Below are positions 4,001 to 43,644 of a stretch of DNA of 48,743 bases, piece after piece. Made by a program: the position numbers and the translations under genes. The notes below the pieces were generated by a model that had not been told where the DNA came from, did not search any database, and saw nothing but the letters and a program-made list of their open reading frames with translations. The stretch's first letter is position 1. Each line of letters opens with the position of its first letter. The stretch is from a virus. Its lineage: Duplodnaviria; Caudoviricetes. The stretch is taken from the IMG/VR virus record IMGVR_UViG_3300020120_000076, positions 1-48,743 of that record; one strand, written 5' to 3'.

Positions 4001-4792
4001 GAAGCCGCCTTCGGTGTTTCCGCCCGGTGCGACGAACGCCTGGGGCTCGATCGACCACCAGCCGTCGGCCGGCACCACGAGAGTCGACGTGGGCCCGAGC
4101 TGCGTGAAGGTCGCGAGCCCGCCCATGTCCACGCCGACCTTCATCACGCGCACCTTGCGGTCGGCGTCGCTCACCTGGAGCACCACGGAGGGGAAAAACG
4201 GCCCTGTGCCCGTGTTCGAGCCGAAACCGATGGCGTTGTGCGGCCGTGGAAGCGCGACCCCGTGGTAGTTGAATGCGTGGTGCTGGCCCGCCCCCCGGGG
4301 CGGTGTCTCGCCCGGCGCGAGGGGGAGCCACATATAATTCCCGACGTTGTCGGCCTGGGTCATCCCTGGCGCGCTTTCGACCGTCTCGACGTAGCCGCCG
4401 TTGTCCCGGCCGCCGGTCGCGTGGAACACGAAACCGCCCGTCACCTCGCCCACGGTCGAGAAGTCGGAGGGGTCGGGCGTCCCGGGGTTCTGGCCCACAC
4501 GGAACACCTGGCCCTCGATCTCGTACCCGTTCGACCACAGGAGCCGCGGACGCACGATGGCGTCTGACTCGGGGCCGCCTGGGCCGATGTCCAGCGAGCG
4601 GTCGAGACAGGGCCCGCCCTCGTCGGTCCCGACGCAATCCGGATCCTCGGGAACGATGGCCGTCCCGTCGCCGAGCCACACGGTGCCTACGAGCGCCGTA
4701 GCGGGATCGCACCCCTCGGGCAAGCAATCACCCGGGTCAAGGTCAGTTCGTTCGCCTGTGCCCCGTGCCCAGGCCGTGGCGGGGCGCGCCAT
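1097..4792 (-). CDS. 1231-aa virion adhesion/receptor-binding protein with two PKD domains and a C-terminal ConA/LamG-like region
   Basis: PKD signatures VDWGDGS...HDYAAPGTYTITLTV and WDWDFGDGS...NPVHVYAAPGTYTVVLVVTDD (about 2270-2815); LRING..., WCDIACFD in the C-terminal part; lies within the structural operon. Confidence 0.8.
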   Translation of the reverse strand: MARPATAWARGTGERTDLDPGDCLPEGCDPATALVGTVWLGDGTAIVPEDPDCVGTDEGGPCLDRSLDIGPGGPESDAIVRPRLLWSNGYEIEGQVFRVGQNPGTPDPSDFSTVGEVTGGFVFHATGGRDNGGYVETVESAPGMTQADNVGNYMWLPLAPGETPPRGAGQHHAFNYHGVALPRPHNAIGFGSNTGTGPFFPSVVLQVSDADRKVRVMKVGVDMGGLATFTQLGPTSTLVVPADGWWSIEPQAFVAPGGNTEGGFVIARYYHEGGPAEGETIVFALGVNLTGDGHHGYAWGSEVVRRNSVGISGVWIDDSVVYGPYGPVKRWLGDCRVGVGVPSGAGDATNSEVAHTSSPHPLGVTATDMGVTVTHGSTDRWRNVTGAIARAIDEITSGDWWLGQISAFTGAWLFGPLPFPTSDPTVAAGWNDWTADELMPRNTLYDELSELYRTTVNRTNIAVVEGLFPYLRAGARWVVGVARFGPASDHLDGTWAPADGLDATTMIFPLVSRHAHGSIGSGSGILGDGADAYRHDLRTLIKAGGATTQGAIRTAVRGAPNPLHQDVGSKWGTRWNTLLGYTVAPYDFVEANPATSARFEPSDLPAVQAGFKGDLSRFDANFLTDPDFTPEARWNQLDVVEAGFDVVYHPEVVAFTEHAPFPPVAAFFTTTGTDLPARHVVIRDASTDWDGSLVTLLVDWGDGSDPEPIAAGGTLAHDYAAPGTYTITLTVLDSDSLADSVSHDVDAFIPNTPPSADFTVAADPGDITNQTVGFTDTSVDDGTITAWDWDFGDGSPHDTTQNPVHVYAAPGTYTVVLVVTDDGGEGGQPPLTGSTSVDIDLPLAGGGGGSRVSMPILFSDSTHAGLQQSSRRYDFTGGGETLAAGAGRDGRDAIAEGDNFGTWQYTFRVADPHVFQFAFDLQGATLPGYELPLFVAGAHTLACVLRPDGKVRVYAWDGVAWNNVMETAAPVPGTGWVVGTMRFGYGAIGAGFAKLRINGEVLSADPIAVNPGGGSFVNDFITFGTGSGGNYDYAPPGYVHGLAAVRWCDIACFDDSGVVDHDDHPGDVHFSIATPQAVGTFNDSGGSAVNVQVADEGTSKNTFTALSQKDTFTLDTPSGTIAAILAVLPFFEVIRGGASVTRTFAMLVKSGGGTSQSADISSASSYSARYRVNPSDTQDRWAVPLDPSTGLAWAAAAAVGAAEVGMVVTVLGAGGTISVSQLGLEVAYWDV

Positions 4793-24874: not shown

Positions 24875-24903
24875 AAGATAGCGGTCGGCCGGCCCAACCG
24901 CAA
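24875..24903 (-). promoter_or_regulatory. Leftward sigma70-type promoter TTGCGG-N17-TATCTT
   Basis: Exact 17-nt spacer, about 35 nt upstream of the first leftward gene. Confidence 0.65.
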
Positions 24904-24922
24904 ACCTGGTTCCACTTTACCA

Positions 24923-24951
24923 TTGACACCGGACATTCCGCCCGGTAAGAT
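24923..24951 (+). promoter_or_regulatory. Rightward early sigma70 promoter TTGACA-N17-TAAGAT
   Basis: Consensus -35, 17-nt spacer; 5' hairpin GCGGGCA-AAC-TGCCCGC at 24959-24975. Confidence 0.85.
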
Positions 24952-25008
24952 TAACGTAGCGGGCAAACTGCCCGCCGACAGACCATACCCAACACGGAGA
25001 GTCGCACC

Positions 25009-26130
25009 ATGTCACACGAGATCGAGCACCGCGCGGACGGCCAGGACAGTTTCTTCGAGATCGGCCGGATCAAATCGGCCTGGCACAACCTGGGTGAGCT
25101 GTGGGCCCAGCGCCCCAAGACGATCGAGGAGATGTTCGAGCGCGCGCCGTGGCTCAACTACCCGGTCGTGAAGAGCCCGACCACGATCACCATGACCGCG
25201 CCCGATGGGTCGACCTACGAGAAGCAGTCGGCCAAGGCGTTCGTCACGCTCCGCACCGACACCAACGAGGAGCTCGGCGCGGTCGGTCCCGACTACTCGC
25301 CCGTCCAGAACATCGACGCCTTCCGCGCGACGATCGGCCCGATGGTCGAGGCCGGGGTGATCCAGGTCGAGACGGGCGGCGTCTTGCGGGACGGCGCGGA
25401 TGCGTGGGTCCTCGGCTCGTTCGACGTCGCCCAGTTCGGGCCCGTCGTTCAAGAGGTGTTCCCCGGCGAGATCGTCCCCTACGCCCTGGTCGCGGTCAAC
25501 CACTCGGGCCGGCGCAAGAACCGGATCCAGTTGACCCCGATCCGCGTGGTCTGCGCGAACACCCTGGGCGCGGCGGAAAGCGCCTCCGAGATTGACGTCG
25601 CTCGCTCGATCGAAGTCGCGCACCGCGGCGACGCCGAGGCCAAGATGGTCGAAGCGGCCGAGCAGCTCTTCGGCGGCATCATCGAGAAGTACGAGGTCAT
25701 CGCCAAGCAGTACCGGCTCTTGAAGCACACGTTTGTCACCAACGACGCCTTCCGCGCCCTGGTGATCGTCCCAACGATCGGCATCCACCCCACCCAGCGC
25801 GACTCGTTCAACCCCGAGGCCAAGCTGGCCGAGCGCACGATCGAGCGGTACGAACGCCGCCGCGACACGATCACCGACCTCTGGCGCTCGGGCGCGGGGC
25901 ACACGGGCGACGACTCCGCGTGGGAAGCCTACAACGGCGTCGTCGAAGCGATCGACCACAACGAGGATCTCTTCCCGGCCCGCTCGGGCGTCTATCGCCT
26001 GGGTTCGCTCCTCGACGGCGAGCTCCGCGAGAAGAAACAGCGCGCCCTGGTCAACCTCGTGGACTACGCCACGGCCCCGGCAGACGCGCTGGACTACTGG
26101 AAAGACTCAGACCTCACGTACGCCAAGTAA
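25009..26130 (+). CDS. DUF932/DUF945 (phage/plasmid-like TIGR03299-type) protein, 373 aa
   Basis: MSHEIE...AWHNLG...YSPVQN...ETGGVLRDG...NHSG...TPIRVVCANT...AWEAYNGV. Confidence 0.88.
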   Translation: MSHEIEHRADGQDSFFEIGRIKSAWHNLGELWAQRPKTIEEMFERAPWLNYPVVKSPTTITMTAPDGSTYEKQSAKAFVTLRTDTNEELGAVGPDYSPVQNIDAFRATIGPMVEAGVIQVETGGVLRDGADAWVLGSFDVAQFGPVVQEVFPGEIVPYALVAVNHSGRRKNRIQLTPIRVVCANTLGAAESASEIDVARSIEVAHRGDAEAKMVEAAEQLFGGIIEKYEVIAKQYRLLKHTFVTNDAFRALVIVPTIGIHPTQRDSFNPEAKLAERTIERYERRRDTITDLWRSGAGHTGDDSAWEAYNGVVEAIDHNEDLFPARSGVYRLGSLLDGELREKKQRALVNLVDYATAPADALDYWKDSDLTYAK

Positions 26131-26232
26131 CTCGTTGCAGAGGGCACGCCCGCGCCACGGCGAGGGCGTGTAATGCACGGGGGCCGTCCCAAGTCGGCCC
26201 TGGTTGGTTCACCCGCAACACGGGAGGATGGA

Positions 26233-26400
26233 ATGACCCGCAAAGAGCGCGAGCGCGAGGCGTACCTCAAGCGCGAGTCGGCGCGCCGCGCAGAGGAGGA
26301 AGAGCAACGCTCGCTCCGGCGCGCCAACGCGCTCGATCGCTATGCCCGGCGACTGGACGAAACTGGTCGCGATTCCGACGAGGAGTTTGGAGACGAGTAG
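26233..26400 (+). CDS. Small highly charged early protein (55 aa)
   Basis: GGAGG RBS; MTRKEREREAYLKRE...DSDEEFGDE. Confidence 0.65.
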   Translation: MTRKEREREAYLKRESARRAEEEEQRSLRRANALDRYARRLDETGRDSDEEFGDE

Positions 26401-26435
26401 TTCACCGCACCACCACTTGCAACACGGAGACAGAC

Positions 26436-26546
26436 ATGCTCTACCGAGATGGATTCATCCGCCGGCTCCTCCGCGCCTTGGCGTGGATGCGCTGGCACCG
26501 AGACCGGCGCGCGGCGCTGGCTCGCCTGCGGGGGTCGGTGCGATGA
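26436..26546 (+). CDS. Small Arg-rich early peptide (36 aa)
   Basis: GGAG RBS; its stop overlaps the next ATG (ATGA). Confidence 0.6.
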   Translation: MLYRDGFIRRLLRALAWMRWHRDRRAALARLRGSVR

Positions 26547-27277
26547 CCCCGCTCTACAACCGCAAGGGCGCGATCGTCGAGCGCGTCCGGAACGATAAGA
26601 CGCGGCGCGAGGGCGTGGTGCGTCTCGACAAGAGCTCCATGACGTTCTTTGCGCGCGTGCCCGATAACGCTGCCGCGCACGACAGACCGGCGATGATGGA
26701 GTCGAAGGACGGGAGCGAGGTGGCGCGTTGGCTGCGCGAGCAGTTGGCGAAGTCGACCGCCTCCGAGCTCTTGACCTGGCTCCCGGTCGTTGAGGTGTCC
26801 GTGAGCGAGCCGGGCTATTACTACGGTCGCGATCGGTCGGCGACGCGCGCTGGCTTCGAGGTCACGCTCGCGCGGTTCTATCTGGCGCTTACGGCCGACA
26901 AGTCCGAATGGGTCCGCCTGTCGTGGGAGGAGGCCGACGCGGAGAGCGTGGCGGCGCTCCGTCCGGAGGATCGAGTCGCGAGCTCCAAGAAGTTCCGCGC
27001 CGGCCCAGGCAACGCGAAGGCGACGGAGACGCGGACGGCGTACGGCGACAAGATTATGCGCGCCCTTCCGTTTTTCGACAACGGCACCAATTACCTCCCG
27101 CACTCGGTCGAGCTGTGGGCCGGCCTGGTGCAAATCGTTGAGACCGTCAACGCGGCCGAGGCCCACATTCGACACCTAGTCGGCACCAAGGCTGGCCTCG
27201 CCCAGCTCCTCGACGACGGCGTGAAGCGGCTGGCCGCGGGCCCGGTGCCCACAACAAGCGGGGAGGACGACGAATGA
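26543..27277 (+). CDS. Hypothetical early protein (244 aa)
   Basis: Coupled start at 26543 (MTPLYNRKG...). Confidence 0.75.
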   Translation: MTPLYNRKGAIVERVRNDKTRREGVVRLDKSSMTFFARVPDNAAAHDRPAMMESKDGSEVARWLREQLAKSTASELLTWLPVVEVSVSEPGYYYGRDRSATRAGFEVTLARFYLALTADKSEWVRLSWEEADAESVAALRPEDRVASSKKFRAGPGNAKATETRTAYGDKIMRALPFFDNGTNYLPHSVELWAGLVQIVETVNAAEAHIRHLVGTKAGLAQLLDDGVKRLAAGPVPTTSGEDDE

Positions 27278-27573
27278 CCCCGCCCATTCGCCACGACTGG
27301 ACCGCGTTCGCCTCGACCACGTTGGCCGGCGCGCTCCTCTTGGCCGAGCACCACGCCCGAGAGATGCAGGCCGCGCACACCGTGGTCGCTCGCATCCAGG
27401 ACGGGATGCTCGGCTTCGACGTCATGCTGTCGGCGAGCTACGCCGAGCTCCGCGAGCAGGGCTCGGCCGACCGGATCTCGCCCGTCGCCTCGGCGCTGCC
27501 GAGCGGCGTGATCGACCTCTACCGCGTGCTCGCCGTCCCGTTCACCCCACTCACCCCCGTCCGAGGAGACTGA
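27274..27573 (+). CDS. Hypothetical early protein (99 aa)
   Basis: GGAGG RBS, ATGA overlap. Confidence 0.75.
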   Translation: MTPPIRHDWTAFASTTLAGALLLAEHHAREMQAAHTVVARIQDGMLGFDVMLSASYAELREQGSADRISPVASALPSGVIDLYRVLAVPFTPLTPVRGD

Positions 27574-27578
27574 CCGCC

Positions 27579-28067
27579 ATGTGTGTCAACTGTCGCAAGT
27601 ACGCGCTCAAGTACCTGGCGCTCATGATCGAGATCACCAACACGGCCTGCCGGGCCGGGGGCGACGCCCTGGGCGACGATCCAGATCCAGCCAAGACGCA
27701 AACGTACGAGGACCTAGAGCGTCTGATTCCGCTGGCGCTCCCGGTCATCCCCGAGGAGGGTGGCGAGCGGTCGGACCCGGCGACCTTGCCCGAGCTCGCG
27801 GGTTGGCTCTCTCTCCTCCCGGCCGACCGCATCCGCGAGATGCAGCACGAGCTCCGGATGCTGTCGATCGCCACGGGCGACATCGCGGGCGGCCTCTACA
27901 CGACCCTCGTGTCCCGGGCCGAGCAGGGCGACGAGGAGTCCCAGCTCATGGTCAACTCGTTGGCCGAGGGCGAGTCGACCGCGCTTCGGCGGAGCGCCGG
28001 CCAGCCGACGATCGTTCTCCACCAGGCTCCGCCTAAGCGCCGGCCGTCGCGCGGGAGCTTGAACTAA
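27579..28067 (+). CDS. Hypothetical early protein with N-terminal CxxC (162 aa)
   Basis: GAGGAG RBS; MCVNCRKY. Confidence 0.75.
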   Translation: MCVNCRKYALKYLALMIEITNTACRAGGDALGDDPDPAKTQTYEDLERLIPLALPVIPEEGGERSDPATLPELAGWLSLLPADRIREMQHELRMLSIATGDIAGGLYTTLVSRAEQGDEESQLMVNSLAEGESTALRRSAGQPTIVLHQAPPKRRPSRGSLN

Positions 28068-28246
28068 TGACCGCCCAGGAACTTCGCGCCTGGCGCGAGC
28101 GGGCCAAGGCGACTCAGGAGTTGGCCGCCGAGGCGGTCGACGTCAACGTGCGGACGTGGCGGAGGTGGGAGCGGGGCGAGTACCCCGTGCCCAAGTGGGT
28201 CGCCTACTGCCTCGCCGGAGTTGCGCGCGAGCGCACGCCGCCGTAA
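28067..28246 (+). CDS. Xre/Cro-family HTH protein (59 aa)
   Basis: Below the ORF-track cutoff: MTAQELRAWRERAKATQELAAEAVDVNVRTWRRWERGEYPVPKWVAYCLAGVARERTPP; TAATG coupling. Confidence 0.85.
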   Translation: MTAQELRAWRERAKATQELAAEAVDVNVRTWRRWERGEYPVPKWVAYCLAGVARERTPP

Positions 28247-28249
28247 GTT
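28221..28249 (+). promoter_or_regulatory. Sigma70-type promoter TTGCGC-N17-TAAGTT for the putative sRNA
   Basis: Exact 17-nt spacer; the -10 includes the HTH stop codon; same -35 as the yqaJ promoter. Confidence 0.65.
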
Positions 28250-28255
28250 GGACTC

Positions 28256-28360
28256 CCGCCAGCGGAACTCGCTTGTCCCTGCCTGGCTCCGTGTTGCGTT
28301 TTTGGGGAAGGGAGAAAACCGGAACACCCCAGCGGTCGCTCGCTGGGGTGTTTTGTTTTA
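28256..28360 (+). ncRNA. Putative trans-acting anti-RBS small RNA (about 105 nt)
   Basis: Own promoter and terminator, no ATG/RBS; 5' hairpin AGCG-GAACT-CGCT; pyrimidine-rich seed at 28278-28297 complementary to several phage RBSs. Confidence 0.6.
28323..28360 (+). terminator. Intrinsic terminator between convergent operons
   Basis: AACACCCCAGCG-GTCGCT-CGCTGGGGTGTT perfect 12-bp stem followed by TTGTTTT. Confidence 0.9.
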
Positions 28361-28633
28361 CTGGAGATTGGCCTGGGCGGCGAAGAGATCGCGGTGGAGC
28401 TCCTGCGCGCGGCGGCGGCGGAAGGCCGCACCTCGCCGGCCATAGTTGGAGGTCACCGAGGCCACGGCCAAGAGCTGGAGCATGTGGTCGATCTCGTCCT
28501 GGGTCTTGACCACCATCCACCACCGATAGCGCATCAAGACCCGGCGGTCGAGTGGGTCATCGGTGAGCGAGAGCAACCAGTCGCGGTAGCGATGGCTGAT
28601 CCGGTGCCGGTAGAGAGCGGGCGCGGCCCTCAT
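28358..28633 (-). CDS. Hypothetical protein (91 aa)
   Basis: ATGA-coupled last gene of the replication operon. Confidence 0.65.
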   Translation of the reverse strand: MRAAPALYRHRISHRYRDWLLSLTDDPLDRRVLMRYRWWMVVKTQDEIDHMLQLLAVASVTSNYGRRGAAFRRRRAQELHRDLFAAQANLQ

Positions 28634-30189: not shown

Positions 30190-31168
30190 GGCGCACCTCC
30201 TCGGTGATGAGCTCCTGGAGCCGGCCCCGGACCATCACCAGCCGGCCGCGTTGCTCGTGCGGAAACTCGTTCGCGATGTCCTGAATGGCTTGGTCATGGA
30301 GCGCGGCGTAGCGCCTCGGGTGTGTCTCAGCGAACCGGGCCACGGCGACCCGTTCGGCTTCGGCCGCCTTCGCGGCCTCGGCAAACTCCTCGGCCCGTCG
30401 CTCCTCGTGGAGTTTGATGTTGGCCGTCTCCCGGGCCTGGGCCTTCCGGCCCCGTGCGCGGCGAACAAACCCGGCGAAGTAGGACGGGTTGAACCGCCCG
30501 TCTTGCTCGGCGGCGGCATACTCCTGGACTGCGAGTCCGAGCTCGGCTGGCGTGGACGGGTCGTAGTCGAGGCCGTTTAAGTGGGCCTGTAGGATGGCGA
30601 CCACCGTGTGAGGGTTCCGGCACGAACGGAGAAACCCCTCGACCGCGCCCCCGTACGGCCCGAAGTCGATCGACTCGAACGCCTGGAAGTCGATCGGCCG
30701 AAACCCCCTCTCCTGCACCTCTCCCTCAAGATCAACAGACGGAGAAGTAGAAGGAGATACTTCGCGTGACAGTTGTGACATGTCACGCCCTGTCACACCG
30801 TTCCCGTTACGCGCCCGGTAGTCGGCCTGCCGCTTCGCGTCAGCAACTTGCTTAGCCGTCCGGAGCTCCCGGTACCGCTCGTAATTGACGAGCAACCAGC
30901 CGCCCGGGATGACGCGCAAGCGCCGGCCCTCGTCCACGCCCGAGCGATCGAACGCATCGGGTGAGGTCAACACCTCCAGCGCCTCCAAGGTCTTGTCGAG
31001 CGGGATGTTGGCCCGCCGCGCCAGGCCCGGCACCGACGCCATGACCTGGCCGTCGGCGTCGGCCATCGCGAGCATGGTCACCCACAAGAGCCGCGTCCAC
31101 GGGTCCTCGGACCAGATCGACGAGTCGAGGATCGAGCCGTAGAGCTTGACGAAATTGCCGCCGCTCAT
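30176..31168 (-). CDS. Phage replication initiator/replisome organiser (330 aa)
   Basis: FVKLYGSILDSSIW...LWVTMLAMAD...GGWLLVNYERYR...KRQADYR winged-helix initiator pattern; low-complexity linker carrying DNA repeats. Confidence 0.8.
   Translation of the reverse strand: MSGGNFVKLYGSILDSSIWSEDPWTRLLWVTMLAMADADGQVMASVPGLARRANIPLDKTLEALEVLTSPDAFDRSGVDEGRRLRVIPGGWLLVNYERYRELRTAKQVADAKRQADYRARNGNGVTGRDMSQLSREVSPSTSPSVDLEGEVQERGFRPIDFQAFESIDFGPYGGAVEGFLRSCRNPHTVVAILQAHLNGLDYDPSTPAELGLAVQEYAAAEQDGRFNPSYFAGFVRRARGRKAQARETANIKLHEERRAEEFAEAAKAAEAERVAVARFAETHPRRYAALHDQAIQDIANEFPHEQRGRLVMVRGRLQELITEEVRRAKS
30730..30812. promoter_or_regulatory. Putative replication origin (iterons inside the initiator gene)
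   Basis: GTGACA at 30766 and 30775, TGTCAC at 30781 and 30791, next to a purine-rich lower-GC tract. Confidence 0.6.
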
Positions 31169-31515
31169 AGCACCACCTCCCACACCCGCTGACGGTACCC
31201 GTCGACCGTCTCGTGCCGCCCCGTCCAGCGGATCTTGCCCATCCGGACGAGCTCGGCCCGGCGCGAGCGGATCCCTGACTCGCTTTGCGTGTGCTGCATT
31301 CCCATGTCCCGCTCCCACGCCTGCACGTACTCGACGAGCTGCTTGTCGATCGAGGGTCCGAGCACACGAAGCCCCGCCAGGACGCGGGCTTGGGTCGGCC
31401 TGACCTTATCCGGGGTGTGGGCTACCCCAGCGGCCTTCGACGTCTCCGGATCGGTCCTACGCGATCGTGGAGGGGTTTCTTGTTCGAGGAGATCGAGCTG
31501 CGGGTCGCCAATCAT
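31165..31515 (-). CDS. Winged-helix DNA-binding protein (116 aa)
   Basis: RRTDPETSKAA...SGIRSRRAELVRMG...VW motif. Confidence 0.7.
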   Translation of the reverse strand: MIGDPQLDLLEQETPPRSRRTDPETSKAAGVAHTPDKVRPTQARVLAGLRVLGPSIDKQLVEYVQAWERDMGMQHTQSESGIRSRRAELVRMGKIRWTGRHETVDGYRQRVWEVVL

Positions 31516-32787: not shown

Positions 32788-33791
32788 TCGGCACCCGCCT
32801 GGCTGACGCGGAGCACGGCGAACGACGCGCCTTGCTTCTCGAAGGCGGTGAGATCGAGCTCGCACCCGCGGAGCGCGGCGATGGCGTCCGACGCGACCCC
32901 GCCACAGAGCTTGAGCACCGCGGCCGACGTCGCGATCCGGTCGAACGGCTTGGCCCCGGCCAACGCTTTCTTGTCGAACGAGGAGCGGCCCCTGGAGAAC
33001 GTGTACGAAATCCGGACATCGCCGCCGATGTAGACGCCGGGCCCATCGGCGTACTCCAACACCTGCTCCCGCGCCTGTGCCTCCAGGATCTCGGCCTCGG
33101 CCTTCAACTGCTTAGCGTCCCGGAGCATTGCCGCGACCTCGCAGAATTGGCCGTTGCTCGACAGGTCGATCCGTGGTACCGCTCCCTCGGCGCGCTGGAT
33201 CTCCAGCCGGGCCTCGTCCAGCTCGACCGCCACGGGCGGGATCTTGGGGACGACGTGGTTCAACCAGAACGACGACACGCGGTCGACGATCTGCGTGTAG
33301 AGCTCGGGGTCAAACTCGACCGGGAAGTCCACCACCTCCATCTGGTCGGCGCAGAAAATAACCCAGTAGCCGACCTCGAACCCGGCGAGCCCGAGGTAGG
33401 TCTGCATCTGCGCGATGTACCCCTCGTGGAGCCCGGTGCGCTTGATCTTGGAGAACGCCCCGAGCGAGGGGCACTTGATCTCGGCCAGCGCCCGCTCGCC
33501 CACGACGCGGCGGTCGATCTTGCCGGTGAGGAAGGGATACACCGGGTGCTGGAGCCGGCCATGCACGCGGTGGAGTCGCTTCCCCGTCTTGGCGGCGTAC
33601 TCTTCGGCCGCGATCTCCTCCAACCGCGTGCCCCGTCGGGTGTGCGCGTTCCCGGTGAACGGGAGCACGAGCCCCACTTTCTCCTCGTACACCTGGAGCG
33701 CCGTCTTGTAGGGGTCGTGCCCCAGGATCGCCCCCACCTCGGACGCACCGATGAACTGCGTCCGGTCCTCGACTGCTTGCGTTACTTCCAT
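32784..33791 (-). CDS. YqaJ-like viral recombination exonuclease (335 aa)
   Basis: IGASEVGAILG...PYKT...RGTRLE...KIDR...EIKC...YIAQMQTYL. Confidence 0.92.
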   Translation of the reverse strand: MEVTQAVEDRTQFIGASEVGAILGHDPYKTALQVYEEKVGLVLPFTGNAHTRRGTRLEEIAAEEYAAKTGKRLHRVHGRLQHPVYPFLTGKIDRRVVGERALAEIKCPSLGAFSKIKRTGLHEGYIAQMQTYLGLAGFEVGYWVIFCADQMEVVDFPVEFDPELYTQIVDRVSSFWLNHVVPKIPPVAVELDEARLEIQRAEGAVPRIDLSSNGQFCEVAAMLRDAKQLKAEAEILEAQAREQVLEYADGPGVYIGGDVRISYTFSRGRSSFDKKALAGAKPFDRIATSAAVLKLCGGVASDAIAALRGCELDLTAFEKQGASFAVLRVSQAGAE

Positions 33792-33818
33792 ACCTGCCTC
33801 CGTGTTTTGTCAAACCTC

Positions 33819-33847
33819 AAAATGGAGCACACGGAGCGGGGGCGCAA
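33819..33847 (-). promoter_or_regulatory. Promoter of the recombination/replication operon, TTGCGC-N17-CATTTT
   Basis: 17-nt spacer in the only intergenic gap between the lysis cassette and yqaJ. Confidence 0.55.
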
Positions 33848-35685: not shown

Positions 35686-38600
35686 TCAGCGTTGGGGAGC
35701 ACGGGACGGTCCTTGCGATTGTCGCGGCTGTTGCATCTGCCGGAGCTGGCGGCGGATCGCCGGAAGCCCGGCGGCGTACTCAGCGAGGAGCTCTTGCACC
35801 TTCACGTTGACCGTCTCTTGAATCAAGCGGTCGCGGACCTCGGGCGCTATGGGCACGAGCATGATCCGGTCGACCGCCCGGCGGGCGGCTTGTGGCAACT
35901 CTAATGCGCGTTTGAGAATATCAGCCTTCGCATTGTCGTCGAGCCGGGGGTACGTGCGATCAGTGATGACCCGCTCCGCGGCGGCGCGCTTCTCGGGGCC
36001 CACCTCGCGGGACTCGGCGCGGCGCTCCTCGGGCGTCGTGGCGATCCGCTGGCCTTGATCCATACGCGCCGCTGTCGCGCCGGGGATCCCGACGCCTAAG
36101 CGGTCGATCTCTTTCAGCACGGGGTCGGTCGAGGCGGCCGAGGTCGAGACCGGGCTTGGGATCGCGGCCGCCCGGCCGAGCTCCGTCTCGCGCTCTTCCT
36201 GGCCGAACGCATTGACCCGCGCCGGCAGGCGCTTCGAGAGCCCCGGGATCCGGGACTCGACCTCTTGCACGACGCCCTGGCGCTCGCGCCGCACGGGGTC
36301 GACCGCCTTGGCCGCCCGGTTCACCATGCTCGGTACCGCGGAGCCGATCTGTGACTGGACGTAGGTGCCCCCGGCGCGCACGGGATCGTTAATCGACGCG
36401 AGCCCTGTGGCGATCCCCTTCAAGAACGGCTGGTCGGACACGGTCTTGCCGATCGCCGGGGCCATCCCCTTGAACAACGCCGAGGCGTCACCGTGGTTGG
36501 CCTTGAGCATCTCGTGGACCTCCGCGCCGAGGGCGACCATCATCCCCTGCGGCCCGAGCTGGGAGACGTTCACCCAGCGTCCGTTGAGCTTGACCGAGTG
36601 GGCGATCTTGCCCTCGGCCTCCCAGGTGTTCCGGTCTCCGGGGTTGGTCGGGTAGTCGCCCGTGGCGTTGTCCTGGCTTGCCAACCAGTAACCCAAAGCC
36701 ATAAACCCCGCCGTGCCGGTGAACGCGCGGGCGATGTCCTCGGCAAACCGCGCCTGTTTCGACGTGCCCCCGGCGGACTTGACGGCCGGGCTCGCCCGAA
36801 GGGCGGCCGTGACGAGCCCCAGCGGGGAGGCATCGACCGCCCGCATGGCGATGTTGGCCGGGATCTTGACGAATGGCACCGCGGTCTCGACGGCGACGCG
36901 GGCGGCGCTGCCACGAGCCCTCGCTTCACGCTGCACCGCGGCCCCCAGGCCGGCGAGCGCGCCCTTGTTCTGATAGACCGCCCGCTCCGCCCGGTCGATC
37001 GCCTTGACGGCCATCTCGTTCGAGGGTTGCGCGCGAAGGGCGGCGCGCGCCGTCTTGAGATCGAGCGAGGGGTCGGCCTTGACCGCTCGGGCGGCGTAGA
37101 CGTCGGCGAGCTCGTCGAGGCTCGCCTCCAGGGCGGCCATGTAAAACGGGCGGTACGCCAGGTTGTGAACGCCATGCACCAGGTGGACCCACCCGTTGAT
37201 GATCGGCGTGTCGTAGTGGACGTCCTTGACGTCCCAGCGGCCGGCCATCTCAGGCGTGATCGTCGAGCCCTTGCGGAGCATCTCCAGCCCCTCTTTCCAC
37301 CCCTTGACGAGCCCGCCCAACCGGGGGCCCGCGCGGAAGTTGAACGCGCCCGACTTCTCGCGCGGCGTGCCCCGGACGAGCGCCGCCAGGGCGTCCACGC
37401 CGACCGCCACGGGGGTCCCGATCATCTGGTCCGCCGTCTCGATCGCGTGGCTCGTGCCGACCTTGAGCACGGTGGAGAGCCCGAGCAGGTTGGTTTTCCA
37501 CCATGTCAACACCTTATCCACAGTCGACGACTCGTGGAGCGAGCTCACAAACCCGGTCAGGCCGGCGCGATCCTTGGCGGTGATGAGCCCCCGGATCTTG
37601 AGCTGCTCCTCCGGGGTGAGCGGGAGTTGCTTGGCGCGCTGGGCGAGCATCCCCCACGTCTGCTCGTCGAGCGTGGAGCGGGCGACGATCTTGTACGCAT
37701 TGAGCGTCCGCCCGGCCGCCTCGCGCTCTTTCGAGAGCTTGGCTCCCATCTCGCCGATGTCCGCCGTCACGCGCGCCATCTCGGCCGAGGCCGCGGCGCG
37801 ATCTTCGGCCGACGTCGCGGGGTCGGCCACGCGCTCGGACAAGATCTCCAGCCGGTCGACCGCCTGCTTCTGGAACATGCGCGCCGCCAGGGCCTCGGTC
37901 CCGGTCCAGGGCTTCTGTGTGAGCAAGTCCTGCGGGTCGGTCGCGCGCTCGGCGGCGGCGGCCTCGGTCTCGGCATGGCTCACCCGGTGCTTGGTGAGGT
38001 CGAGCTTCGAGACGACGTCGCGGAAGATCTGCTCGCCGTCGGGGGAGAGCCCCAGCTTGGCGATGTTGAACTGCGCTGCGCCCTTCCCCGAGGGCGTGTT
38101 GCTCACGTCGATCGGGGCCTTGTACTCGGTCCCTGTGGGTTCCCGGCGAGGGAAGAGGAAGCTCGGGCGCGCGGGCCCCCGTTGGTCTCGGATCGCCGTC
38201 TCTACGGCCGTCTTGGCCGTCGCCAACGCGGTCGCCGCGGGCCCGGCAAGGGCCGCCCGCGCCGCGCCCCGCTTCCGGAGGTACGCCACAGCGCCGGCCG
38301 CGATGGCGAGCCCCAGGCCCGACGTGAGCGCAATGGCGAGGTGGTGGGTCGGGGCGGTCGCGTACGGATTGTCGTCCGGGCCCTGGGCTCCCGCTTCCTG
38401 GTCGGGCGTGGCGAGCGCGAGCACACCGAGCACGGGCAGTCCGTACCGCCGGATCGCGCGGCGGATCTCGGGGCTGAGCTCGACCGACCAGTGGCCGAAG
38501 CCGCGGATAGAGATGTGCTCGACCGGGACGTCGAACCCGAGGCCCCGGAGGAGCCGCTTGATGGCGGCCGGGGTCATGTTGTCGTACCACTGGATCGCCG

Positions 38601-41600
38601 CCGTGGGACTCCCGCCCTCGCCGGCCAGGTTGGCGTTGGACATCCGGTTGGCCGCGTCCGACCACGCGATCCGGTCGTAGCCGCGCTCGGCCGAGTCGAC
38701 CAAGAACCGGGCGGCGTTGAGCGACAGCGCCGCTTTCTGGTCGTTCCCGAGCGGCGACAACGCCTCGAATTGGGCGGCGGTTTTCCAGGCACGCTTGGCC
38801 TCGTCGAGCTGGTCGCCGAGCTCGCGGCGCTGGGCCGTGAGCTCGGACTCGCGCACGCGAGCCTGACGCCAGGCTTCGATTGGCGCGGCCTGTTCGTCGG
38901 TGAACCTGGGGAAATCGGCGCGCCAGTTCTCGCCCCTCTGGTAGATCTCGCGGAGCACGTCCGGGGCGTAGTAGGGATGGTCAGGATCGGCGGTCGCCGC
39001 CGCACCGTGTGCCGCCTCCGCCAACCGCTCGCGCTCCGCCACCGCCTCGTCCTCGGCCTTGTCGACCTCTTTGTATCGGCGGTCGAGCTCCGCGTACTCG
39101 GCGTCGGTCGGCGCGGCGCGACCAGCGCGCTTCTGCTGCTCGGCGATCTGGTGCTGCGCGAGCGACGCCTGGGTCTCCAGCATGACCGCGATCGGCTCGC
39201 CGCGCTCGTTGCCGAGCGAGTTGAAGATCTGCGTCTCCTCGGAGGCGAGCGAATTGAGGTGATCCATCCGCGCGCGTATCTTCGCGCCGATGTCGCTCAG
39301 CTCGGGCGTGAGCGTGAGCTGGTCCTCGGGCACGCCGCGCGCCAGGCGCTCGGCCTCCTGCATCAACGCCGCGATATCCGAGCGCGTCGCCTCCTGCTGC
39401 CGGCGCACCACACGAAGATCGCGCTTGGCGTAGATAACGTCGGCCGGGTCGCTGTCCGCGTCCACGATCTCCGCTTTGTTCAAGCCGTACCGCTCGACCG
39501 CTTCGGGGATCGTGTGATCCTCGACCCGGATGTGGCCGACAGCTTTCTCCGCGCCCCGGCTCGACCAGTAGTCATGGCCGCCGAACGCCTCGCGCGTGAG
39601 CCGATCGGGCGCGTTGATCCAGTTGTTGATGAGCTCCCGGTAGTTGGTCCCGCCGCCGATCCGCTGGTATGAGGCGAACCCCGTGGGGCCTTTCACCTCG
39701 GGGGCGATCGGCATCAAATAGGGGTCCTTGGCCGCGAGCTCCTCGGGGCTGAGCACACGGGCCGGGTCATCCGCGCCGAACTGCTCGGTGACGGGCGGGA
39801 GGGCGAGCTGCGCGGGCCTAGCGACGTGGTTATCGAGCGCCGAGCGGAGGTGTTCGATCTCTTCTTTTAGCGTGTCGACCTGACCCTGCTCTTCCTCGAA
39901 ATACTCGCCCTCGTCCATGTAGTAGTGTTCGCTCTCCGCGCGGTTGTACTCCGAGCGCGCGTCGGCATAGTCGTTCAAGTCGCGCCGCACCGACTCGATG
40001 ATCGAGTCGGGCTCCAGGCCCTCCTCCTCCATCGCTTGCTGGAGCACGTCCGCCTCGTCGTCGCCCCGAGCGATCTCTTTCCCTCGGGAGTTGCGAACGA
40101 CCCACTCGTCGGGCCCGGGCTCGAAGTTGGCCCGCTCCTCGGCATTCCGGTCAATGATCTTGAGCGCGGCGTCGGGGCCATAGATCTCGCGCACCCGGTC
40201 GGCGATGCGGGCGAGGAAGCTCTCGCGCGACTCGCCCTCGATCGGGGTAGGCATCTTCCACTCGTCGGTGACGACGCCGTTCTCGACGCGGCGGCCCATC
40301 GGACCCTCGCGCGCCGCGGGGTTGGCGTGCGTCACCTGGACAAACTCGTCGGCCTCGGGCGGCGCTTGGGGCTCTTCCTCCCAGGTGTACCCCTCGCGGC
40401 TCAGGATCTCCGCCGGATCGCTCGACGGATAGAGGTCATCCTGGATCAATTCGAGCGCCTTGTCGACCGCGTCGCGCGGGACGTACTCGGCCTCGACGTG
40501 TTCGTCGAGATAGCCGATGGCCGGGTCGGCGAGCCGAAGGTCTAAACCAGCGCCCGAGAGCGTGTCACGGAGCTCGGTCTCGCGTTGGTCCATTACCTCC
40601 TGGGCGTCCTCCATTTCGCGCCGCGCCCCGGCGATGCGCGACTCAATCTCGTCCTCGATCTCGGTGATCTTGGCCGCGCGGTTGTCGATCTGCTCGGTCA
40701 CCGTCTCCGGCTCGACGCCCTCCGCCAGCCGGTAGTCGTGGCCCGGGGCCTCGCGGTCGATCAGCTCGTCGATGTCGGTGATCTCGTCGGCGTTGCCCGC
40801 GCCGAAGTTCTCGCCCCGCGCTTCGCGGACGGCCGAGGTGCCGAGCGTGACGCGCTCGATCTGCGGGCTCTTGGCGTCGATGAACCGCTGGACGTCGGCG
40901 CGCGAGACCTTGACCCCCTTGGTCTTGGCGTCCTCCAGAAGCGGGCGGATGAGCTGGAGCTCGGCCTTGGAGAACTTGGGGGCCTCGCTCCCGGTGAGCT
41001 TGCCGATCCAGTCGGCCGCCGGCCGCGCGGCGTCCCATGATTTGGGGAGCGCGTCGACCGCATTCCGGAGACGCGAGACAAACCCTCGGGACTGCGGGCC
41101 CTCGGGGACGAGCTCGCGCCCGCCCTCGCCGCCATGTGGGACGAGAGATGTCCCCGCCACGACCATCGCCCCCAGGGCGAGGAGCTTGTTCCGATCCTCG
41201 GAGTCGCCCTTGTCGAACGCGGCCAGCGCGGGGATCGCGGCCAGCGCCGCCCCTCGCTCGACCCCGAGCTTCCGAGCGGCGGCGACGGCGGCCTGGCCCA
41301 CCGGGGTCTCGGCCGCCGAGCGCCCAAGGGCGAGCGTCTTGGCGTACGCCGCAACGCCCCGCTGCCAGAGCGCCGCCCTGGGGTCGACCGATCCCGCCGT
41401 GGCCGCGCCGCCGCGTTCGGCGAGCAACCCCGCGAGGCGCGCGCGATCGGACGCCGACGCGCCCTCGATCACGGTCCCGGGGTAGACGACTCCCTTAGCC
41501 TCGGGCCCCAGGTGCTCGCGCGCCAACTCCAGCACGCGAGCGGCATCGGCCGCGGTGCGGCCCTCGGGGAGCGCCAACTGGATCTTGGCTTCGGGCCGAA

Positions 41601-43644
41601 GCTGGATCACCGAGGAGCCGTCCACATGGCCCTCGGGGTCGGCCTCGTGGATCGCGGTCATTGCCCGGCGATACTCCTCGGGGGTCATCTCGCGGCCCAC
41701 GTCCAGCTCGACCACCTGCCGCGCGCCCTCGGGATCCGGGACGGCGTGCATGAGTCCCGCCTCGCGGCCGGCATAGCTCGCCCGCTGCAACACGCGCTCG
41801 ATCGCCGCGCGGTCAAACTCGGGCGGAAAGTGAACCTCCTCGCCCGCGCCAGCCAGGCCGCCTGTAAGCGTTCTTGAAAGAGACTTCTGTGCCGTCTCCG
41901 GCAACGCTTCCTCACGCGACACCGGCTCGACCACGTTTCGCTGATAGAGCTCGGCCAACCGCTCGCGGGAGCCGTCGCCGACGGCGGCGTGCTCCTCGGC
42001 GCTGGGCTCGGGCCGTGGCGCGGGGGCCCGAGGTTCGGCCCCGAGCTCGCGCGCACTCGCGCCCTCGCGCACCGACTGCGCGGCCTGGTCGGTTGTGGCG
42101 AGCGAGCTAAGCGCCCGTTGCTCGCCCACCTGTTGCTTCGCTGCGCCGACCACCTCTTGGGCCGCCCCGCCCACGGCTTGGCCGGCCTGACGCGCCTGGG
42201 CCTCGGCCCCCTGTTGCACCTCGATCTGCCCGACGTCCATGAGCTGCATTTGCGTCACGGCGTCCGCCGCCTCGGCGGGCCGGAGGCGAGAAGCGAGGGC
42301 CTCGGTGGTGCCGCGCGCGACGCCCCCGGTAACGGCCGCCGCCCCTCGGACGGCCGACGCCAGCGCGCCGGTCCCGAGCTCGGAGACCGCGCCAAAACCC
42401 GCCTGGGCGACCATGTTCTCGATCGCGGCGTTGGCCGCCGTCAAGGGGTCCGCGCCGTTGAGCCGCGCCTCGCGGTACGAGATCCCCGCGCCCACGACCT
42501 GGCCCTGCGTCAACCCACGGCCCACGCGCGCCGGGAGCTGGGCCTGGAACTGCTGCATTTCGGTCCCGAGGTTACTCAAGACGTTGGCGGGCGTGGCGTT
42601 GAGCGGTCGGGGCCCGGCGACCATCGGGAGCTCCTCGGGCGCGGCCGAGCCAATCGCTTCGCCGATCGAGCGCACCCCGGTCCCCAAGGCGCGCACCGCG
42701 CCCGAGCGGCCCAGCGCGCCGCCCGTCTCCAGCGCCTCGCCGATGACGCGAGCGCCGCCGCCGAGCGCGCGGCCGGCCATGCCCCCGAGCTCGAAGTAGG
42801 GCGCGGAGCCGAGGACCGTGGCGGCCAAGTCCTGGCCCGGCGTCGCGCGCGGCGTCGCCCCCGTGGGGGCGGTGATCCCGACCCTCGCCTGCTCTTCGGC
42901 CGACGGGAGCGCGCCCGGCTGCTGCGCGCCCGCGATTGTTTCCTCCTGGGCCGGGAACGGGTTGAGGATCGGCCCCAGGAACGCCGAGGTCACCTTGCCC
43001 GAGAAGTCCCGCGTCTGCTCCAGCGCGTCGGCGTAGTTGTTGAGGCGGTTGACCGCGTCCTCGTAGCCGGCCGCCTCCTGGTGCCGGCCCGCCGCGCGAG
43101 CCGCCTGCATCGACTGCTGGAACTTGTCGGCCTCGGCGCGGAGCCGCTCCGGCGTGGCCGGCGGGAGCGCCCGCTGTGCCGACTCGAAGGTCGCCTGCTC
43201 GCGGGCGGGAGCGAACACCTCGTTGGTCGGCGCAATCGTCCCGCCGCCCCCACGCCCCCCACCGCGCGAGCCGCCGCGCGGCGTGCCGATGGGCACGGTC
43301 GTCTGACTGGGGAGCTTGGGGTAGATGGGGCCCGGTTCCACAGCGTCGCGCCCGGCCCCGGGCGTCGCCGCTGGCGCGCTCGAAGCGGGGAGATAGGGGT
43401 TGTCATCGACCGGCGCGGCGGGGGCCGTGGCGGGCCCCTGGCTCGCCTGGTCGGTCACGTTGTAGAAGATGTCCGGGTCCTGGTGCTTCCAGTCCGACTC
43501 GCCGGGCGGCGCTGGCCGAATGTTCGGCATCGTGTAGACCGCCGAGGGATCGGCACCGCGAGGGTGCCGCTGGGGCGCGCGACGCGGCCGGTAGGGATTC
43601 TCCGGATCTTGGGGCGGGAGGACTTCCTCGTCGGTGTCAGCCAT
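35686..43644 (-). CDS. Giant internal virion/ejection (polyvalent-type) protein, 2652 aa
   Basis: Last of the ejection cluster. Ala/Gly-rich helices; central FVSRL...GGTNYREL...GHIR...ETQ...GYDRIAW...YD module; helical C-terminal region (PFVKIPANI, NAFGQ). Confidence 0.8.
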   Translation of the reverse strand: MADTDEEVLPPQDPENPYRPRRAPQRHPRGADPSAVYTMPNIRPAPPGESDWKHQDPDIFYNVTDQASQGPATAPAAPVDDNPYLPASSAPAATPGAGRDAVEPGPIYPKLPSQTTVPIGTPRGGSRGGGRGGGGTIAPTNEVFAPAREQATFESAQRALPPATPERLRAEADKFQQSMQAARAAGRHQEAAGYEDAVNRLNNYADALEQTRDFSGKVTSAFLGPILNPFPAQEETIAGAQQPGALPSAEEQARVGITAPTGATPRATPGQDLAATVLGSAPYFELGGMAGRALGGGARVIGEALETGGALGRSGAVRALGTGVRSIGEAIGSAAPEELPMVAGPRPLNATPANVLSNLGTEMQQFQAQLPARVGRGLTQGQVVGAGISYREARLNGADPLTAANAAIENMVAQAGFGAVSELGTGALASAVRGAAAVTGGVARGTTEALASRLRPAEAADAVTQMQLMDVGQIEVQQGAEAQARQAGQAVGGAAQEVVGAAKQQVGEQRALSSLATTDQAAQSVREGASARELGAEPRAPAPRPEPSAEEHAAVGDGSRERLAELYQRNVVEPVSREEALPETAQKSLSRTLTGGLAGAGEEVHFPPEFDRAAIERVLQRASYAGREAGLMHAVPDPEGARQVVELDVGREMTPEEYRRAMTAIHEADPEGHVDGSSVIQLRPEAKIQLALPEGRTAADAARVLELAREHLGPEAKGVVYPGTVIEGASASDRARLAGLLAERGGAATAGSVDPRAALWQRGVAAYAKTLALGRSAAETPVGQAAVAAARKLGVERGAALAAIPALAAFDKGDSEDRNKLLALGAMVVAGTSLVPHGGEGGRELVPEGPQSRGFVSRLRNAVDALPKSWDAARPAADWIGKLTGSEAPKFSKAELQLIRPLLEDAKTKGVKVSRADVQRFIDAKSPQIERVTLGTSAVREARGENFGAGNADEITDIDELIDREAPGHDYRLAEGVEPETVTEQIDNRAAKITEIEDEIESRIAGARREMEDAQEVMDQRETELRDTLSGAGLDLRLADPAIGYLDEHVEAEYVPRDAVDKALELIQDDLYPSSDPAEILSREGYTWEEEPQAPPEADEFVQVTHANPAAREGPMGRRVENGVVTDEWKMPTPIEGESRESFLARIADRVREIYGPDAALKIIDRNAEERANFEPGPDEWVVRNSRGKEIARGDDEADVLQQAMEEEGLEPDSIIESVRRDLNDYADARSEYNRAESEHYYMDEGEYFEEEQGQVDTLKEEIEHLRSALDNHVARPAQLALPPVTEQFGADDPARVLSPEELAAKDPYLMPIAPEVKGPTGFASYQRIGGGTNYRELINNWINAPDRLTREAFGGHDYWSSRGAEKAVGHIRVEDHTIPEAVERYGLNKAEIVDADSDPADVIYAKRDLRVVRRQQEATRSDIAALMQEAERLARGVPEDQLTLTPELSDIGAKIRARMDHLNSLASEETQIFNSLGNERGEPIAVMLETQASLAQHQIAEQQKRAGRAAPTDAEYAELDRRYKEVDKAEDEAVAERERLAEAAHGAAATADPDHPYYAPDVLREIYQRGENWRADFPRFTDEQAAPIEAWRQARVRESELTAQRRELGDQLDEAKRAWKTAAQFEALSPLGNDQKAALSLNAARFLVDSAERGYDRIAWSDAANRMSNANLAGEGGSPTAAIQWYDNMTPAAIKRLLRGLGFDVPVEHISIRGFGHWSVELSPEIRRAIRRYGLPVLGVLALATPDQEAGAQGPDDNPYATAPTHHLAIALTSGLGLAIAAGAVAYLRKRGAARAALAGPAATALATAKTAVETAIRDQRGPARPSFLFPRREPTGTEYKAPIDVSNTPSGKGAAQFNIAKLGLSPDGEQIFRDVVSKLDLTKHRVSHAETEAAAAERATDPQDLLTQKPWTGTEALAARMFQKQAVDRLEILSERVADPATSAEDRAAASAEMARVTADIGEMGAKLSKEREAAGRTLNAYKIVARSTLDEQTWGMLAQRAKQLPLTPEEQLKIRGLITAKDRAGLTGFVSSLHESSTVDKVLTWWKTNLLGLSTVLKVGTSHAIETADQMIGTPVAVGVDALAALVRGTPREKSGAFNFRAGPRLGGLVKGWKEGLEMLRKGSTITPEMAGRWDVKDVHYDTPIINGWVHLVHGVHNLAYRPFYMAALEASLDELADVYAARAVKADPSLDLKTARAALRAQPSNEMAVKAIDRAERAVYQNKGALAGLGAAVQREARARGSAARVAVETAVPFVKIPANIAMRAVDASPLGLVTAALRASPAVKSAGGTSKQARFAEDIARAFTGTAGFMALGYWLASQDNATGDYPTNPGDRNTWEAEGKIAHSVKLNGRWVNVSQLGPQGMMVALGAEVHEMLKANHGDASALFKGMAPAIGKTVSDQPFLKGIATGLASINDPVRAGGTYVQSQIGSAVPSMVNRAAKAVDPVRRERQGVVQEVESRIPGLSKRLPARVNAFGQEERETELGRAAAIPSPVSTSAASTDPVLKEIDRLGVGIPGATAARMDQGQRIATTPEERRAESREVGPEKRAAAERVITDRTYPRLDDNAKADILKRALELPQAARRAVDRIMLVPIAPEVRDRLIQETVNVKVQELLAEYAAGLPAIRRQLRQMQQPRQSQGPSRAPQR

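Follow-up and report, generated by a model that had tools for sequence, protein, structure and literature searches.

The uncultured-virus record studied here, hereafter the window, comprises 48,743 bases at 68.6% GC and is a whole record. Its genes include those for a terminase, a P22-like portal, a capsid protein, YqaJ, RecT, a DnaQ-like exonuclease, and a DUF932 protein. Because the nearest relatives of the DUF932 protein among named genomes lie mostly in Gemmatimonadota assemblies, we infer that the host of the phage belongs to this phylum. The stretch is contained in soil metagenomes, and no RNA run is listed among the sequencing runs that contain it; in four DNA runs, where coverage was patchy, the recovered pieces were identical to the window, with no listed variant in the seed or tags described below, a result that carries little information at this coverage. 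Two long proteins are also encoded in the window: one of 2,650 aa, weakly matching an internal virion protein (35686-43644), and one of 1,200 aa that contains a PKD domain (1097-4792).

Intergenic DNA accounts for 4.5% of the genome. By our own gene calling, the gap that holds the element described here is where a rightward early operon (25009-28246) and a leftward recombination/replication operon (33791-28358) meet in convergent orientation. The last gene of the early operon, at 28067..28246 on the plus strand, adjoins this element and encodes a 59-aa HTH protein (HTH_31; Aca2/YdiL-like; 39.1 and 25.8 bits, both above cut-off). The operon that it ends consists of small unknown genes and is a possible anti-defense cluster; family scans matched most early genes to no family and recognized no antirepressor in the window.

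A predicted sigma70-type promoter (TTGCGC-N17-TAAGTT; 28221..28249, plus strand) precedes the element, with its −35 box inside the HTH gene and its −10 box overlapping the HTH stop codon. It matches a strict pattern of our own, chosen after the promoters had been seen, and a stock promoter scan missed it. This pattern has eight matches genome-wide, and its four intergenic starts (binomial 0.0002) are the predicted early, late-side, yqaJ, and RNA promoters. Specifically, a divergent pair at 24876..24951 combines TTGCGG-17-TATCTT, reading leftward on the packaging side, with TTGACA-17-TAAGAT, reading rightward into the early operon (24923-24951, plus strand, upstream of DUF932 at 25009), and the predicted yqaJ promoter lies ahead of yqaJ at 33847-33819 on the minus strand.

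Transcription from 28221-28249 would yield a small RNA of ~103 nt (28256..28358, plus strand; start inferred from the −10 box), ending in a bidirectional intrinsic terminator between the converging operons (28320..28358; hairpin 28320-28355, with T tails on both strands). Within it lies a seed (28278..28298, plus strand) that is the complement of a ribosome-binding-site (RBS) tag, with the core CUCCGUGUUG at 28287-28296. In predicted folds the 5′ half of the RNA is weakly structured (z +0.93; whole RNA, z −2.5), and the expectation of an unpaired seed held in part, depending on the start chosen: GUGUUGCGUUU is mostly open, and GGCUCC is paired at some starts. Open reading frames at 28221-28445 (plus strand) and 28064-28327 (minus strand) overlap the element mechanically, and the gene caller calls none of them. 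By prediction only, the element has its own promoter and terminator and no coding frame, as a trans-acting anti-RBS sRNA would. No Rfam family reached its gathering score for the predicted RNA; a subthreshold hit to rnk_pseudo (28.1 versus 55 bits), driven by the terminator, was rejected. An earlier note on this DNA had described the promoter, the seed, the hairpin, and six target strings, all of which were located as described, and had called the RNA stand-alone. It is not strictly so: its promoter overlaps the end of the HTH gene, no terminator lies between that gene and the seed, and the RNA is therefore also the 3′ end of the early operon.

The seed mirrors a short repeated tag. The 9-mer AACACGGAG occurs four times in the genome, before DUF932, open reading frame 26436, and yqaJ, and once reversed at 28287-28295. 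The pattern AACACGGRG, with an expectation of 0.67 matches, has five, a number attained in none of 100 shuffles. At gene starts there are three exact copies and one variant (gene 26233), each 6 to 9 nt before the ATG. The tag is confined to nonstructural genes after intergenic gaps, in a single orientation except for the lone reversed copy. When all intergenic segments were compared with all starts, the segment containing the element came first, pairing with six starts for 8-nt words and four for 9-nt words. Of 300 dinucleotide shuffles, 2 (8-nt) and 3 (9-nt) produced a best segment as good. The seed pairs over at least 9 bases with 4 of 57 starts in its own genome and with none in 17 other phage sets, a comparison in which each seed had been picked on its own genome. 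Before an ATG, the tag occurs one to five times in each of five candidate-host metagenome-assembled genomes (MAGs).

Candidate targets were ranked among 56 starts with a home-made approximation of IntaRNA that charges the opening costs of both RNAs, the short yqaJ leader being padded; raw duplex energy without accessibility favored GC-rich starts and was not used. The four tagged starts took the first four places, with predicted energies of −20.3 (yqaJ), −14.4 (26436), −12.6 (DUF932), and −10.4 kcal/mol (26233), and the background began at −8.9 kcal/mol. The yqaJ site runs from the RBS through the start codon (33789..33808, minus strand) with a 13/14 core match, and the reversed seed is identical to this RBS and ATG at 15 of 20 positions. 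Before the 36-aa open reading frame 26436, the tag GCAACACGGAGACAG (26419..26433, plus strand) is identical to the reversed seed at 14 of 15 positions. The RBS of DUF932, the first gene after the promoter at 24923-24951, carries CAACACGGAG (24990..24999, plus strand) and forms a 10-bp helix matched by 0 of 300 shuffles. Before gene 26233, CGCAACACGGG (26214..26224, plus strand) forms 11 pairs including one G-U (2/300 shuffles), and this copy is predicted to lie in a small hairpin with a CAACA loop.

Two of the six targets originally proposed did not survive this ranking. The first leftward late gene (24838) scored −7.6 kcal/mol, 10th of 56, with a helix matched by 41 of 300 shuffles; recT scored −5.9 kcal/mol, 22nd of 56, its helix unusual by itself (3/300) but inaccessible. 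The proposal that the RNA covers the first gene of every operon thus holds for two of the three other promoters, the late/packaging start being indistinguishable from background, and the late/packaging operon is probably not a target.

The tagged starts also stand out in operon layout. DUF932, 26233, and 26436 are the only early-operon starts preceded by a gap of more than 5 nt, and nearly all replication genes downstream of yqaJ overlap a neighbor, the single 146-nt gap closing if the longer open reading frame 31165-31515 is a gene. These overlaps confirm the translational coupling of downstream genes that had been suggested, and the tag therefore marks independent initiation points, in two operons and not three. 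Two further features lie close to tagged RBSs. A Twister-P5 ribozyme (Rfam RF02684, 49.9 bits versus a gathering score of 37.6; 26136..26198, plus strand) follows the stop codon of DUF932 directly and ends 15 nt ahead of the tagged RBS of gene 26233; its cleavage would split the early mRNA just upstream of that RBS. In the spacer of the yqaJ promoter, the arm CTCCGTGT (33829..33836, minus strand) forms a perfect 8-nt inverted repeat with the yqaJ RBS; it is paired in minimum-free-energy and centroid folds, yet shuffled versions of the region fold equally well (z +1.0). The repeat (33798-33836) would hide the yqaJ RBS on lysis-gene read-through RNA, not on RNA from the yqaJ promoter.

The best reading of this arrangement, and one that we consider probable, is that the predicted ~100-nt RNA acts in trans on RBSs and lowers the translation of early and replication genes. 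The RBSs of DUF932, 26233, and 26436, which are all the uncoupled starts of the early operon, and of yqaJ, the head of the coupled recombination/replication operon, share the private tag AACACGG(A)G. The single mirror copy between promoter and terminator would give rise to the RNA, which would pair with the four tagged RBSs, presumably without Hfq (not found in any of five candidate-host MAGs, all incomplete), and block initiation of translation; coupling would carry the repression down both operons. Because the promoter is of the type that serves the targets and the RNA ends the early transcript, the RNA would accumulate while the early genes are expressed and would serve as a delayed brake. 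Trans silencing, as put forward in the earlier note, is thus the best-supported reading for the early and yqaJ/recT replication operons and not for the packaging operon. If the proposal is correct, one protein-free RNA switch, keyed to the phage's own RBS tag, coordinates two operons and spares most host genes.

RBS-occluding sRNAs and start-associated sequence (SAS) motifs are both known, and the element resembles each in part. RNAIII, RsaE, and LhrC are host trans-acting anti-Shine-Dalgarno sRNAs in which a CU-containing seed occludes Shine-Dalgarno sites on several mRNAs; unlike these, the seed in the window corresponds to a tag private to the phage and infrequent in candidate hosts. C4 RNA forms a cloverleaf, is processed by RNase P, and has cis targets. 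The predicted RNA shares with P1/P7 C4 and P4 CI the principle of a phage-encoded RNA acting on phage gene expression by short base pairing (for C4, the accessible text of PMC8201110). It differs in that no Rfam C4 match was obtained, no antirepressor was recognized, and it is directed at the RBSs of two operons and not at sites within an immunity transcript of its own. SviR of the Vibrio cholerae PLE, in the part of the report accessible to us (bioRxiv 10.1101/2022.04.08.487710), is likewise an sRNA of a mobile element that acts in trans on several targets and reduces phage translation, but it is satellite encoded and directed against the helper phage, whereas the RNA described here is phage encoded. 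Overall, the RNA would work like a trans anti-RBS sRNA and the tag is SAS-like, and neither is a member of the cluster K SAS or C4/CI classes. In the open-access literature, represented mostly by abstracts, we found no anti-SAS, no multi-operon phage anti-RBS RNA, and no private tag with a mirror RNA; Figs. S3 and S4 of Pope et al. and the Yasnaya_Polyana SAS table may list reversed sites.

No homologue of the predicted RNA was found in 26 related records or 239 DUF932 loci, and the same comparison of intergenic segments with starts was therefore extended to 14 related records, of which G007 was covered over 60,000 of its 64,152 bases. A significant mirror was found in two of them, G015 and G019, and none in the other 12. 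G015 carries a GCAACCCTGAGG-type tag on eight starts and one mirror (3/300 shuffles), which lies in a long hairpin behind a TTGCGC-17-TACCAT promoter upstream of packaging genes; of the nine matches to the strict promoter pattern in this genome, eight are intergenic promoters of the form TTGCGC-17-TAnnnT. In G019, an antisense extended −10 promoter is followed by a seed and a UUCG hairpin (0 to 2 of 100 shuffles). This case is filter dependent, two targets being left when two-letter words are excluded on half the genome, and its seed is near-generic anti-Shine-Dalgarno sequence, matching four starts in G011; by our reading, the opposite strand holds an RBS-like site with a 58-codon out-of-frame open reading frame. 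In each of the three phages, the local seed is able to pair with the RBS of DUF932. In G011, a complete genome, the tag stands on eight starts and no mirror was found. A candidate in G006 (+36260) was dismissed because it is the RBS of a leftward gene missed in gene calling. A long start tag of the AACCGCTTCCATCGAGGGA type stands on about nine genes in G013 (L009 3237-10071), with no mirror in this 33% fragment. Single-protein scans with DUF932 and YqaJ detected no close relatives in viral contigs; cultured phages matched these proteins only below 60% identity, at 26 to 34% among the best places listed. DUF932 proteins of 50 to 60% identity are present in Logan/ENA contigs. A scan for the tag with a DUF932-like start returned 119 loci, none from a close relative, and a search of 401 Gemmatimonadota genomes returned two genomes, both already in the comparison set.

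The closest described parallel to the tag is the SAS of cluster K mycobacteriophages. According to the accessible text of Pope et al. (PMC3203893), SAS motifs occur in cluster K, with a single reversed copy in four K1 genomes, and binding of RNA or protein was left open; later papers call the role of SAS unknown in their accessible portions (PMC11373665, PMC12699233, PMC7302621), which give no RNA reading of the reversed copy, nor does that of the former. Across these four sources, as far as their accessible text goes, SAS in clusters K and EF (Microbacterium) are, like the tag, private asymmetric motifs at the RBS before the ATG of nonstructural genes after intergenic gaps, with one reversed copy unlinked to a gene start. 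The tag in the window differs from them in sequence and host. It has 4 copies, as opposed to 11 to 19 of the cluster K SAS proper (consensus GGGATAGGAGCCC) with its ESAS inverted repeats, and no repeated inverted repeat was seen before the window tags; of 57 starts in the window, none pairs with the seed of Anaya.

In the K1 phages Anaya, CrimD, Validus, SgtBeansprout, and Adephagia, we found the SAS complement CUCCUAUCCC in a conserved hairpin loop. The intergenic RNA that contains the reversed SAS of Anaya is highly structured (z −6), has no Rfam match, and presents this copy as a hairpin loop; the Anaya-type hairpin lies behind a conserved promoter-like site, TTGnCG-17-TAGACT. All 16 predicted hairpin pairs are kept in four K1 phages, one of them through a two-sided change. 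In Adephagia, the loop falls in the gap between genes 92 and 93, given as the start of late transcription in the accessible text of PMC11373665. The K1 mirror thus sits in a hairpin loop at the start of a late transcript, whereas that of the window sits in a weakly structured seed 5′ of a terminator. Among 12 aligned cluster K phages, the SAS is constant, and the mirror loop is exact in four, a looser pyrimidine loop in four, and absent in four; TM4 has no such hairpin. Pairing with an exact loop therefore cannot be the only function of SAS. The conserved promoter-like site and multi-hairpin RNA lie at L284 48847-49231 (Anaya) and in matching gaps of L286-L298 and L374. This last intergenic gap of cluster K is matched by 193 records and contains an invariant GGCTGGTCACC loop with no Rfam match; the multi-hairpin RNA is probably a late-transcript leader.

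We give roughly even chances to the broader proposal that many unrelated phages, among them ones of the Gemmatimonadota type and of cluster K1, run a lock-and-key translational regulon composed of a private RBS tag on early genes and a mirror RNA, a pair that is re-keyed in each lineage, which would explain SAS. In that case SAS, unexplained since 2011, would be targets of an RNA that shuts off early translation, and their function would become a simple test in a cultured phage (Adephagia).

A protein site and an inverted relic, or chance, would predict the same sequence pattern as an anti-RBS RNA. We consider it rather unlikely that a protein, possibly the neighboring Aca2-like HTH protein, binds the tag as an asymmetric site, either in DNA, as at L5 stoperators, or in mRNA; the reversed copy would then be an additional site, facing leftward read-through that comes from the replication operon. 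The HTH gene does abut the element, a second reversed part-copy lies in the yqaJ promoter spacer, and the tag copies share a consensus beyond the Shine-Dalgarno core. The tag also resembles the CsrA site, ACANGGA, but CsrA was not found in any of five candidate-host MAGs, which are incomplete and depend on the inferred host. For SAS, the accessible text of Pope et al. leaves both kinds of binding open (PMC3203893). However, the spacing of the tagged copies is exactly that of an RBS, a predicted promoter and terminator flank the reversed copy, and the mirror lies in or at an RNA hairpin loop in G015 and the K1 phages.

Unlikely, too, is that the tags are simply the phage's favored strong RBS and the reversed copy an inverted relic of the yqaJ RBS, or chance, in an ordinary 3′ untranslated region. 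The 15/20 identity to the yqaJ RBS and ATG, with the ATG now AGG, would fit such a relic, as would the private tags without a mirror in G011 and the lack of conservation of the element in related records and DUF932 loci; moreover, the element was selected from a very large scan, so that p ~0.01 is weak alone. Yet a leftward gene at this place would be located past the leftward terminator and would run antisense to the HTH gene, which is intact. In addition, the other strand has, ahead of the copy, a promoter equal in quality to those of the operons, and the layout recurs in unrelated phages.

A purely cis-acting element, in which the early transcript folds its 3′ end back on its own tagged RBSs, or an RNA that is simply the end of the operon, is very unlikely. 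Three of the four targets are on the same operon, and there is no terminator between the HTH gene and the seed. The top-ranked target, yqaJ, is nevertheless on a different transcript, and the others lie 1.9 to 3.3 kb upstream, across coding sequence. Least probable of all is the full claim of the earlier note, in which the RNA is a master repressor for immunity, the packaging operon is silenced as well, and a carrier or lysogen-like state is maintained. This overstated claim drew on a 10/11 match before the first leftward gene and accords with P1 C4 RNA, which regulates an antirepressor in the lysis-lysogeny choice (accessible text of PMC8201110), but is contradicted by the background rank of that late target and left without support by the failure to find an integrase among 68 open reading frame translations scanned against PHROGs and Pfam. 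Timed early-gene shut-off by the anti-RBS RNA fits better than a lysogen-like state.

Finally, 133 viral DUF932 loci were surveyed, 27 of which had at least three targets and 17 of which were reached by at most 3 of 40 shuffles. Nine of these 17 were dropped for an open reading frame of at least 21 codons starting on the opposite strand, and five of the remaining eight belong to one low-GC family with anti-RBS hairpin loops. Such a loop is present in 17 of 30 loci of the family, and its type tracks the RBS type in 14 of the 17 (Fisher p 0.009). Specifically, the CUACUUUC loop occurs with GAAAGUAG starts in five loci and without them in three, and both are absent from all nine others; at 80 to 85% identity, the association is essentially one clade-level switch. 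Two different anti-RBS hairpins occur in one low-GC phage (L060, at 7857 and 14984; also L063, L068, and L076), each L060-type hairpin matching a different RBS class of the same phage and immediately preceding the next block of genes. At L042 246, L049 406, and L052 569 and in L064, L066, L067, L056, and L051, a hairpin loop is conserved as GGTGGGTATGAGAGACA or its complement, on stems that vary but still pair, beside a T-run. Further candidate anti-RBS elements lie at L059 4036, L019 19824, and L370 13744, and the complement in L059 forms the loop of a terminator-like hairpin.
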